Source: Chloroflexota bacterium (lineage in GTDB: Bacteria > Chloroflexota > Dehalococcoidia > Lucifugimonadales > JADFKI01). Taken from it: a stretch of DNA of 36,119 nt. Within the stretch, counting starts at the first letter, position 1; every line of letters starts with the position of its first letter. The stretch lies in contig JAQBUT010000028.1 in NCBI GenBank assembly GCA_027623195.1, positions 1 to 36,119 on the forward strand, in the 5' to 3' direction. Position numbers: made by a program. Positions 18,001-21,000 of the stretch are shown here, piece after piece.

Positions 18001-21000
18001 TAATTAGTCCTTTGGTGGTTCTAGCGAGGTGGACCCACCCGTTCCCATCCCGAACACGGCAGTGAAACACCTCAGCGCCTACGATACTGCATCCGCAAGG
18101 GTGTGGGAAAATAGGTCACCGCCAGGGGGCTTTTTCTTTTACCAGGCATTTGCACCCGAAAATAACCCTTCTTCCTATTGTTTTAATTGCCGTAGGATTG
18201 TATTCTGCGGCAAAGTACCTTCACAATCCGCTGCACCGGCCAAACCACGGCATTAACTGGGTTACATCACCCTCTTGGCCTCCTACTTATACGGGGCAAT
18301 CACTTCAACCCAGGAAGCCCAAAGACCTGTGAAGCGAAATAAAATGGCCATCTTGTACTCCATCGGCTAAATTGCTCTCCTATGTTTACGACTTTACAGC
18401 TTTAGCCGATATACCTATAATGTAGGAAGCCCGCCAAATATGTTAGGAAAGCCTGTATAGCCGTGACATTGAACGCCTCCGATGACGAGTTTGATTCCTC
18501 CGAGGATCCTGAGGGTATGGAACAACTCCTCGAGTCTATGGAGCCTCTCAAGCCCCTGAGAAGGGGCGACGTGATCGAGGGTGTTGTCATGCGTGTTGAT
18601 GGCGAGGGCATTATTGTCCATATAGGACATAAGGCCGAGGGCGTAGTGCCAGCGCGAGAAATGCGAACCCTTAGCGCGGACGAGGTCGAAGCTATTAACG
18701 TGGGGGACGAGATTGTCACCTACGTGGTACGGCCTGAGTCAGCTGATGATGCAGCGATACTGTCGGTAGACCGAGCTGTTGGCGAGACAGGTTGGCACGA
18801 TCTAGAGAAGTCAATGGAGGCCAACGAAACCGTCGAAGGACAGGTAATTGGCTTCAATCGCGGCGGCGCCATAGTAGAAGTCCAAAAGATACAGGGATTC
18901 GTTCCCATGTCCCAGTTGGTAAGCGTCTCTCGTGAAGTTTTTAAGGCAATGCAGGCTGAAGAGTCTCCGGAGCCTGAAGCATTGGACGAACAAGAGGCAG
19001 TGGAGCCTTCCGACGAAGCGCCCGCACAAGATAATGTTCCAGCAGTGGATGTAGCGGCAGTAGAGATCGGCAAGGAACTGCAACTCAAGATACTCGAAAT
19101 TAATCGGGGCCGCAATCGTGCCATCTTCTCCGAGCGGCAGGCCGTTCAGGAGTGGCGCGACGAGCAAAAGGCTCGATTAGTCCAGGAGTTGCAGGAAGGC
19201 GAGACCCGCACCGGGAAGGTTACAGGCATAAGTAGCTTTGGAGCCTTCGTAGACTTGGGCGGAGCGGATGGCCTAATACACATCTCAGAAATGTCCTGGG
19301 GGCCGGTTAACTCCCCTGAAGATGTGGTTCAAGTGGGACAAGATGTCGACGTTTTTGTCCTCAGGGTGGATACTGAAAATCGTAAGATAGCCCTGAGCCT
19401 GAGGCGGCTACAGCCGGAGCCTTGGGAGACGATAAACGACCGATACGCAGTAGGCGACCTGGTGGACGCGACCATAACCAAGCTCACGAACTTCGGCGCG
19501 TTTGCTCGTGTTGAAGGAAACATTGAGGGCCTGATTCATATATCAGAGTTAGCTTCGCGAATGATCCAGCACCCTAAGGAAGTTGTGGGAGAAGGGGATG
19601 AGGTTAAGCTCAAGATCTTAAGGATCGAGCCGGAGCGAAGACGGCTGGGGCTTAGTCTAAAGGCGGCGGAAGAGGAACTCCTGTAACCCTGAATATCCGC
19701 TAGCGCGAAACTCCTTCCAGGAGAGTTGAGATATGGCAAGTAGGTTCGAAAAGTTCTCGGAGAGGGCACGCAGAGTCCTTTCGTTGGCCCAAGAAGAGGC
19801 CCAACGTTTCAATCACAATTACATCGGGACGGAACATATCCTCCTCGGACTCGTTCGAGAGACGGATGGCGTGGCCGCCAGAGTACTGTCCAACCTCGGC
19901 GTAGAACTTCACAAGGTGCGTTCAGCTGTTGAATTCATCATCGGGCGAGGTGAGCGCTCCACCCCTGGAGAGATAGGCCTCACCCCCCGCGCCAAGAAGG
20001 TCATTGAGTTAGCGGTGGATGAGGCACGACGCCTAAACCACCACTACATCGGAACTGAGCATCTCCTCATAGGGCTGATGCGTGAGGGCGAAGGTGTCGC
20101 GGCGGGCGTATTAGAAAGCCTGGGCGTTAACCTGGATAAGGTACGCGGCGAGACCAGTCGCATCCTGACTCAGTCCTCGCAGAGCCCGCAGGGCAGCGGC
20201 AGTGCCGCCAGTGCTCGCATTCAGACACGCACGCCAACACTGGATCAGTTGGGTATAGATCTGACCCAGGCGGCAAGGGCTGGCAAGCTGGACCCCACTG
20301 TGGGCCGCAGCAAAGAAATTCAGCGTGTAACGCAGATTCTCAGCCGGCGCACCAAGAATAACCCTGTCCTTATTGGTGAGCCAGGCGTGGGCAAAACGGC
20401 CATCGTTGAGGCCTTGGCCCAGCAGATCGCCAACAACGATGTCCCTAGCACCCTACAGGGCAAGCGCCTTGTGACGCTGGACATGGGCGCGCTGGTGGCT
20501 GGCACCAAATATCGCGGCGAGTTTGAAGAGCGGCTTAAGAAGGTTGTGGACGAGATCCGCAGCTCCGGGAACTGCGTGCTCTTTATTGATGAGATACACA
20601 CCATGATCGGGGCAGGCGCCGCAGAGGGTGCCGTTGACGCCGCCAATATCCTTAAGCCTTCTTTGGCCAGGGGTGAACTTCAAACCATCGGGGCAACAAC
20701 CCTGGACGACTATCGCAAGTACGTCGAAAGGGACCCGGCGCTTGAAAGGCGCTTCCAGCCTGTCCGTGTGGAAGAGCCTTCTGTGGAAGAGACGGTGGAG
20801 ATTCTTCACGGCATAAAGGGCCGTTACGAAGAGCACCACCAACTGAAGATTACAGACGAGGCCATCAGGGCAGCTGCAAGTATGTCTTCCCGGTTTATCG
20901 CCGACAGGTTCCTGCCCGACAAGGCAATCGACCTGATTGACGAAGCAGCATCCCGAGTGCGCATCAACTTCTCCACAGCTCCGCTGTCTGTCAAGGAATC

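Follow-up and report, generated by a model that had tools for sequence, protein, structure and literature searches.

A solitary 5S rRNA gene upstream of rpsA in a Lucifugimonadales genome and the recurrent break-up of the rRNA operon across Dehalococcoidia

Introduction

Co-transcription is the textbook means of balancing the three bacterial rRNAs. Complete separation of their genes is rare but already known from Leptospira interrogans (Fukunaga and Mifuchi 1989, as cited in PMC6582327) and from some CPR genomes. Lui et al. 2021 (PMC8172020) report 23S-5S separation for some CPR genomes and, as the earlier note on this DNA had quoted them, do call it very unusual in bacteria. According to their passages on the CPR (Patescibacteria), the two genes lie apart by distance or by intervening genes, with protein genes in the spacer of some; the CPR are presumed symbionts with small genomes (~1 Mb), whereas the genomes considered here measure 2-4 Mb. 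The one Chloroflexi genome of that paper is mentioned in those passages only as ‘unlinked’, with no detail on its 5S gene. The class Dehalococcoidia is listed for 16S-23S unlinking, a phylogenetically clustered state, in the survey of Brewer et al. (bioRxiv 10.1101/705046), which scored 16S against 23S only and whose preprint text has no occurrence of ‘5S rRNA’. Likewise, ‘5S rRNA’, ‘23S’, ‘rRNA operon’ and ‘unlinked’ are absent from the main text of a SAR202 cultivation paper (PMC10444878). In the literature that we searched, 23S-5S separation is not described for SAR202/Dehalococcoidia or Chloroflexota, although the supplements of these three works (PMC10444878, PMC8172020 and Brewer et al.) may list such genomes.

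A closely similar layout is that of L. interrogans which, going by its account in PMC6582327, is a free-living-capable bacterium with 16S, 23S and 5S all separate, as in the genome studied here, but belongs to a different phylum. Here, by comparison, linked relatives show where the breaks fell, all stages of breakdown occur within one class, each large rRNA gene keeps a tRNA gene behind it and the 5S gene keeps rpsA. The Dehalococcoides-type layout, with 16S alone and 23S and 5S together, is matched within the class by family f96 (genomes and families are given by our codes, G and f), whose four closed genomes of 1.4-1.9 Mb carry 5S 82-102 nt behind 23S and, by their size and gene layout, may belong to Dehalococcoides or its kin; it differs in that 5S is attached and no tRNA stands between the two genes. 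What is new here is the tRNA-fMet in the spacer, the constant break point, a series of intermediates, the gain of a putative promoter and a U-run by detached 5S genes, and the fact that profile searches did not find the 5S nucleases.

Results

The window that we analysed is a whole contig (C26) of 36,119 nucleotides from G000, a draft assembly in 65 contigs with 87% completeness and 4% contamination. The Rfam 5S_rRNA model (RF00001) matches its plus strand with 94.7 bits against a gathering score of 38 (E 1.7e-19), and the match covers positions 1-120 of 120 of the covariance model with four non-canonical pairs marked, identifying a full-length member of the family (Table 1). Whole-genome searches of G000 recovered one 5S, one 23S and one 16S gene, the count given in the earlier note; at 87% completeness, G000 taken alone may hold a second 5S copy in unassembled DNA. 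Our sample of the order Lucifugimonadales comprised 61 genomes, one for each family code; 55 of them yielded a 5S, 54 a 23S and 51 a 16S gene. Each of the 55 has a single 5S copy, full-length matches score 74-97 bits, and both the 5S gene of G000 and the S1 gene next to it share 88-93% identity with their counterparts in the nearest relatives. The gene is thus single-copy and conserved, as a working 5S gene would be, and is predicted to be expressed.

Table 1. Features around the 5S rRNA gene (window coordinates)
Feature	Position	Strand	Details
Fe-S cluster biosynthesis (HesB/IscA-type) protein gene, upstream neighbour of 5S	17357..17902	-	PF01521 (Fe-S_biosyn), E 1.4e-11
Sigma-70-type promoter-like site of 5S	17966..17995	+	TTGACA (17966-17971), 18-nt spacer, TATACT (17990-17995); 11/12 matches
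Short 5' leader of 5S	18006..18010	+	predicted by folding to pair with the first bases past the 5S 3' end, lengthening helix I
5S rRNA gene	18011..18127	+	full length; sole copy found in the genome
3' trailer of 5S	18128..18140	+	GGC completes the lengthened helix I and is followed by TTTTTCTTTT; resembles a terminator whose ‘loop’ is the 5S body
Second promoter-like site, ahead of rpsA	18393..18421	+	TTTACA, 17-nt spacer, TATAAT; 11/12 matches
rpsA (ribosomal protein S1, four S1 domains), downstream of 5S	18463..19686	+	PF00575, E 1.3e-64, four stretches

The three rRNA genes of G000 lie on contigs of 36119 (5S), 85880 (23S, C47:76634-79737, plus strand) and 27613 bases (16S, C33:10841-12338, minus strand), none of which contains an N, and each has coding flanks. 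The 5S gene stands between the Fe-S_biosyn gene, whose product has a Gly/Cys-rich tail, and rpsA, and is thereby set apart from 23S by protein genes. Since relatives of the rpsA product align from residue 18-19 onward, its true start may be near 18517. Behind 23S come a tRNA-Met(CAT) at +91 and an ABC permease gene, and the ~6 kb of contig on its 3' side hold no 5S gene. A xylose-isomerase-like gene lies ahead of 16S, which has tRNA-Ala(TGC) ~325 nt behind it. Neighbour-gene and domain searches therefore agree with the earlier note, both in the flanks that it described for all three genes and in its account of the three genes as dispersed, with no 5S near 23S.

Twelve genomes of the order consist of a single contig (G040, G004, G006, G011, G020, G022, G028, G041, G045, G048, G051 and G052), and in all twelve 5S, 23S and 16S lie far from one another. 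Between 23S and 5S the shortest distance is ~94 kb (G052; 257 kb in G040), and 16S and 23S are 0.1-1.5 Mb apart. For four of these genomes the previously listed 5S/23S/16S positions (in Mb) were reproduced exactly: 0.017/0.274/1.157 in G040, 2.887/1.201/1.860 in G011, 1.037/1.642/0.122 in G020 and 1.080/1.710/0.239 in G004. The 23S genes of relatives were sought by BLAST with the 23S of G000, and pieces split at variable regions were merged by hand and by script. On our reading of the combined searches, 5S is decidably detached in at least 43 of the 61 sampled families; 16 genomes with missing matches or with genes at contig ends were left out of the linked/unlinked call. Two genomes of the sample are linked. 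In G036 (f37) tRNA-Met stands at +42 and 5S at +169 behind 23S, while G029 (f30) has 5S 52 nt behind 23S with no tRNA between. Two further f37 genomes, G131 and G110, which come from the class sample, are also linked, making three of three for this family, with layouts that are either 23S-tRNAMet-5S or the 3' end of 23S directly ahead of 5S. The idea that full dispersal is an old trait of the order therefore holds insofar as the state is widespread and old, but not as a universal one.

Nor is it confined to the order. Our class sample (101 genomes, at least 85% complete) contributed 43 complete 23S loci of families that do not belong to the order. Of these, 23 loci in 11 families are unlinked (no 5S within ~1.5 kb and 5S located elsewhere), 16 loci in 10 families are linked (5S within 600 nt of 23S), three loci in three families are intermediate, and one locus in one family is undecided. 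Detachment is thus neither present in all lineages of the order nor absent outside it, and the claim of an order trait is both too narrow, since the trait extends across the class, and too broad, since two families of the order are linked. Considering all 81 loci, 16S lies directly ahead of 23S in 13, of which seven are fully canonical, two are intermediate and four have lost only the 5S gene (G072, G102, G079 and G118); linked and unlinked junctions thus occur in all four combinations within the class. Elsewhere in the phylum, 23S directly precedes 5S, without an intervening tRNA, in 16 of 20 5S regions taken from other classes, and the remaining four have no 23S within 5 kb.

Comparison of linked and unlinked loci indicates what the operon probably looked like before it broke. 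A tRNA-Met(CAT) lies on the same strand 28-274 nt behind 23S in 70 of 81 loci, and 11 linked genomes have the order 23S-tRNAMet-5S. Bacterial initiator tRNAs are distinguished by a mismatch at 1:72 and by three G-C pairs at the base of the anticodon stem. In the ARAGORN drawing, the tRNA behind 23S in G000 has C1 opposite A72 and GGG/CCC in the anticodon stem, features that it alone possesses among the three CAT tRNAs of the genome, the other two having G1-C72; it is thus a tRNA-fMet. On the other side, S1 follows 5S on the same strand, with a spacing of 265-450 nt, in 22 of 30 loci of the order and in 11 of 27 other loci of the class. This holds for linked genomes (G036, G129, G108 and G095) as well as unlinked ones, and 5S also lies upstream of S1 in all five database records that have upstream sequence, although these loci were found via S1, so that only the presence of 5S is informative. 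The pair is broken in seven genomes of the order, including G040 from the same family as G000, with no S1 within 5-9 kb downstream. Since tRNA-Met stands behind 23S and S1 behind 5S in linked and unlinked genomes alike, gene order argues for an ancestral block of 23S, tRNA-fMet, 5S and rpsA.

The tRNA has been kept behind 23S at 54 of 55 unlinked 23S loci, the exception being G118, which has no tRNA-Met there. The cut therefore fell between the tRNA and 5S. Two genomes show this junction in an intermediate state. The tRNAMet-5S gap of G114 is 1.5 kb and contains two RDD-family genes on the opposite strand, and that of G075 is 5 kb and contains five genes, namely an HNH protein and, on the opposite strand, a luciferase-like monooxygenase, a glyoxalase, a PspC protein and an acetyltransferase. 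In both, a putative promoter lies 7-8 nt ahead of 5S. The Fe-S gene upstream of 5S in G000, which shows on which side the old operon was ‘broken’, is little conserved and precedes 5S at only 6 of 30 loci of the order. A search for conserved junction genes across the order found that open reading frames after tRNA-Met or before 5S form clusters of no more than seven members; the largest clusters proved to be spurious frames inside 23S or shadows of S1. This clustering fits one event with later shuffling as well as it fits many events.

The detached 5S gene of G000 carries the sequence features of a small transcription unit. The -10 hexamer of its promoter-like site ends 15 nt ahead of the 5S 5' end, and an A-rich run precedes the site. 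None of 200 shuffles of the 80 nt upstream of 5S reached the score of this promoter, and TTGACA...TATACT is conserved in position in the closest relative. At the other end, both the minimum free energy and the centroid folds of 18003-18142 pair 18006-18019 with 18118-18131, extending helix I to 14 bp, and the helix is followed directly by UUUUCUUUU. A simple terminator scanner made no call here; the ‘loop’ of this structure is the entire 5S body. We infer, beyond any established mechanism, that the multi-branched 5S body may take the place of the hairpin in an intrinsic terminator. The 23S and 16S genes of G000 have promoter-like sites of their own, so that all three rRNA genes are preceded by one, and their leaders contain the boxA-like motifs CTTTAACAA / CCTTAACAA.

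We scored 57 5S loci for promoter and U-run; dropping six with less than 1 kb of upstream sequence left 39 unlinked and 12 linked loci. A promoter match of at least 10/12 no more than 100 nt upstream was present at 24 of the 39 unlinked loci versus none of the 12 linked ones, and shuffled controls for the unlinked set gave a mean of 0.47/39 and a maximum of 2/39. From the -10 hexamer to 5S the distance is 7-24 nt at 16 of the 24 promoter-bearing loci and 33-67 nt at the other eight, and several of the loci with a distant promoter have a hairpin leader between promoter and 5S. Where an unlinked 5S has no promoter close by, one lies 49-71 nt upstream and then comes a hairpin leader. A T-run stands directly behind 5S at 24/39 unlinked versus 3/12 linked loci. 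The 10-of-12 promoter within 100 nt is missing at 15 of the 39 unlinked loci, and so is the U-run at 15 of 39; several of those without a U-run have a separate hairpin instead. Judged by these consensus matches, detached 5S genes have evidently gained a putative sigma-70-type promoter.

The nucleases known to release 5S rRNA in bacteria are RNase E/G and RNase M5. Profile searches of G000 and five relatives (four of them closed) with PF10150 for RNase E/G and TIGR00334 for RNase M5 found no match in any of the six genomes. RNase III is present in G000.

Discussion

Gene identity, copy number, position and synteny, together with the promoter and U-run sequences and their enrichment, are best explained if the 5S gene of G000 is a remnant of a 23S-tRNA-5S-rpsA block that has turned into a minimal transcription unit. 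We hold this explanation as a whole, including the reading of the gene as the single working 5S rRNA gene of the genome, to be highly probable. The ancestral block of 23S, initiator tRNA-Met, 5S and rpsA would have been cut between the tRNA and 5S, such that 23S, now elsewhere, retained the tRNA and 5S stayed ahead of rpsA. The 5S gene would then have become a unit in which a sigma-70-type promoter lies ~15 nt ahead of 5S, a leader of ~8 nt precedes it and a U-run comes directly after helix I, the terminator stem being helix I lengthened by leader and trailer. Transcription start and stop are predicted here from consensus matches, and the processing route and the balance of the rRNAs are predictions that build on them. 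Because such a unit would run from its own promoter to the extended helix I and U-run, its primary transcript would be nearly mature 5S, needing only trimming of the ends. Three separate promoters, or the turnover of unassembled RNA, would take the place of co-transcription in setting the balance of 5S with 23S and 16S.

A single ancient split ahead of the radiation of the order and its sister clade, inherited stably ever since, would make f37 and f30 secondary re-joins. In keeping with this, linkage is absent from all 12 closed genomes of the order, and in the FastTree 23S tree (96 rows, rooted on 15 rows of other classes) the order forms one clade whose sister is an all-unlinked clade (f86, f64, f76 and f87), the two together forming a single group in which 44 of 51 rows are unlinked and three linked. 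However, the layout of f37, 23S-tRNAMet-5S-rpsA, is the layout of distant linked lineages, for which retention is the simpler explanation; the class needs at least 10-12 state changes on the same tree; and 5S is detached in four genomes whose 16S and 23S are still joined, which means that separate events occurred. Genes on the broken side are also not conserved across the order, and the tree itself is not stable where rows have an unusual base composition: f99 falls inside the order in an IQ-TREE run on 61 rows whereas FastTree places it far away, f37 and f99 being the families of deviant composition. An AU test that forced all unlinked members of the order into one clade returned p 0.07, so that this grouping is neither rejected nor supported. 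On balance, a single ancient split strikes us as possible but improbable. With the 23S tree this fragile and the AU test at that value, no firm number of events can be given inside the order. Across the class, recurrent detachment is robust, because some genomes keep 16S and 23S joined and others do not.

The place of 5S ahead of rpsA raises the prospect that the two form one operon, with 5S co-transcribed with the S1 mRNA and then cut out, coupling 5S supply to that of a ribosomal protein. The same-strand adjacency at the majority of order loci, its occurrence at other loci of the class and its recovery in every database record with upstream sequence would be expected of such an operon. Against it, a U-run abuts 5S and rpsA has a separate promoter-like site; the adjacency also occurs in linked genomes and may be an inherited gene order with no function; and the pair has been lost in seven genomes of the order, one from the same family. 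We regard a shared operon as unlikely. It is more unlikely by far that the layout is an artefact of assembly or binning, in which the true 5S gene lies behind 23S in an unassembled or collapsed repeat and the present copy is foreign or extra. Fragmentation and contamination of the draft would allow for this, but the sequence behind 23S continues on the same contig for ~6 kb without 5S, twelve closed relatives have the same layout with one 5S each, and both 5S and the adjacent S1 gene match their counterparts in the nearest relatives with 88-93% identity.

Beyond the remnant turned transcription unit that we favour for G000, a wider reading concerns the class, and we put it forward only tentatively. 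It proposes that Dehalococcoidia keep every stage of rRNA-operon breakdown and that a tRNA spacer, together with the lack of both nucleases, let 5S become free repeatedly. An initiator tRNA would have been inserted between 23S and 5S in a lineage without RNase E/G and M5, and processing of that tRNA would already have severed 5S from the 23S precursor, so that any break behind the tRNA would be harmless once a promoter had arisen. The freed 5S would be a near-mature primary transcript whose own helix I, with the U-run, halts the polymerase. Eukaryotic 5S genes end in a T-run, to which such a stop bears a likeness. In this way abundant ocean bacteria could hold 5S, 23S and 16S in balance without co-transcription.

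These genomes represent a large, free-living and ecologically important group in which the link of co-transcription is broken at both junctions, and the intact and half-broken states of close relatives offer a natural series for studying rRNA balance and 5S maturation. Both the helix I and U-run terminator and the idea that the spacer tRNA was a pre-adaptation could be tested in cultured SAR202 strains, should these share the layout. A practical consequence is that amplicon methods for rRNA operons, and binning checks, fail in these lineages when they rely on 23S lying next to 5S or 16S next to 23S.

The 23S gene of G000 is 3104 nt long, the length reported for it before. A single 113-nt insertion at 23S positions 731-843 accounts for most of the excess; it folds as a long imperfect hairpin, but no better than shuffles do (z -1.2). 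The tRNA-Ala behind 16S is not peculiar to G000, being found there in 7 of the 12 closed relatives as well.

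Detachment of the 5S gene in other Chloroflexota

In the class genomes G072, G102, G079 and G118, the 5S gene lies elsewhere though the 16S and 23S genes are still joined (loci L116, L126, L112 and L139, respectively). This is opposite to the sequence in which rRNA operons usually break up. Four 5S genes from other classes of the phylum lack a 23S gene in the 5 kb upstream of them: L152 (G195), L155 (G211), L158 (G185) and L159 (G210). In G195, tRNA-Ile and tRNA-Ala are followed, in that order, by a tandem pair of 5S genes. Of the Chloroflexota genomes G186 and G208, one has 10 5S matches scattered across many contigs, and the other has six weak, sub-threshold matches of about 33–35 bits; these may represent multi-copy or divergent 5S genes.

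Insertions and leader of the 23S gene

Compared with shorter 23S genes of the class, the source genome (G000) carries a 113-nt insertion, and the same site is also enlarged in G040 (136 nt), a member of the same family, and in G048 (163 nt). The predicted fold of the G000 insertion is a long imperfect hairpin, not better than those of shuffled sequences. The large insertions in the relatives G004 and G118 share one common site in domain IV/V and could be introns or intervening sequences.

In the G000 23S leader, a promoter-like site (TTGACT-17-TATAAT) and a boxA-like CTTTAACAA enclose a GC-rich hairpin of 9 bp and, after it, a run of seven T residues. This resembles a terminator placed within the rRNA leader and could be a hairpin of boxB type or an attenuator.

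Surroundings of the 5S gene

The downstream tRNA cluster and L10 leader constitute ordinary translation-gene surroundings. The upstream HesB/IscA-type protein has a Gly/Cys/Ser-rich C-terminal tail of ~45 residues with GGCGSGG-like repeat units, an uncommon feature among members of this family.

Coordinates of features in the window and in 23S loci
Feature	Location	Strand	Remark
Fe-S cluster biosynthesis (HesB/IscA-type) protein	window 17357-17902	-	upstream of 5S
tRNA-Thr, tRNA-Tyr, tRNA-Thr	window 25328-25787		downstream of 5S
Ribosomal protein L10 leader	window 29248-29412		downstream of 5S
23S leader region with hairpin and T-run	L002 1306-1440 (G000, C47)		upstream of 23S
23S insertion	L002 2231-2343 (G000)		23S positions 731-843
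Large 23S insertion	L095 (G004)		23S positions about 2005-2359; 355 nt
Large 23S insertion	L139 (G118)		23S positions about 2064-2764; 701 nt
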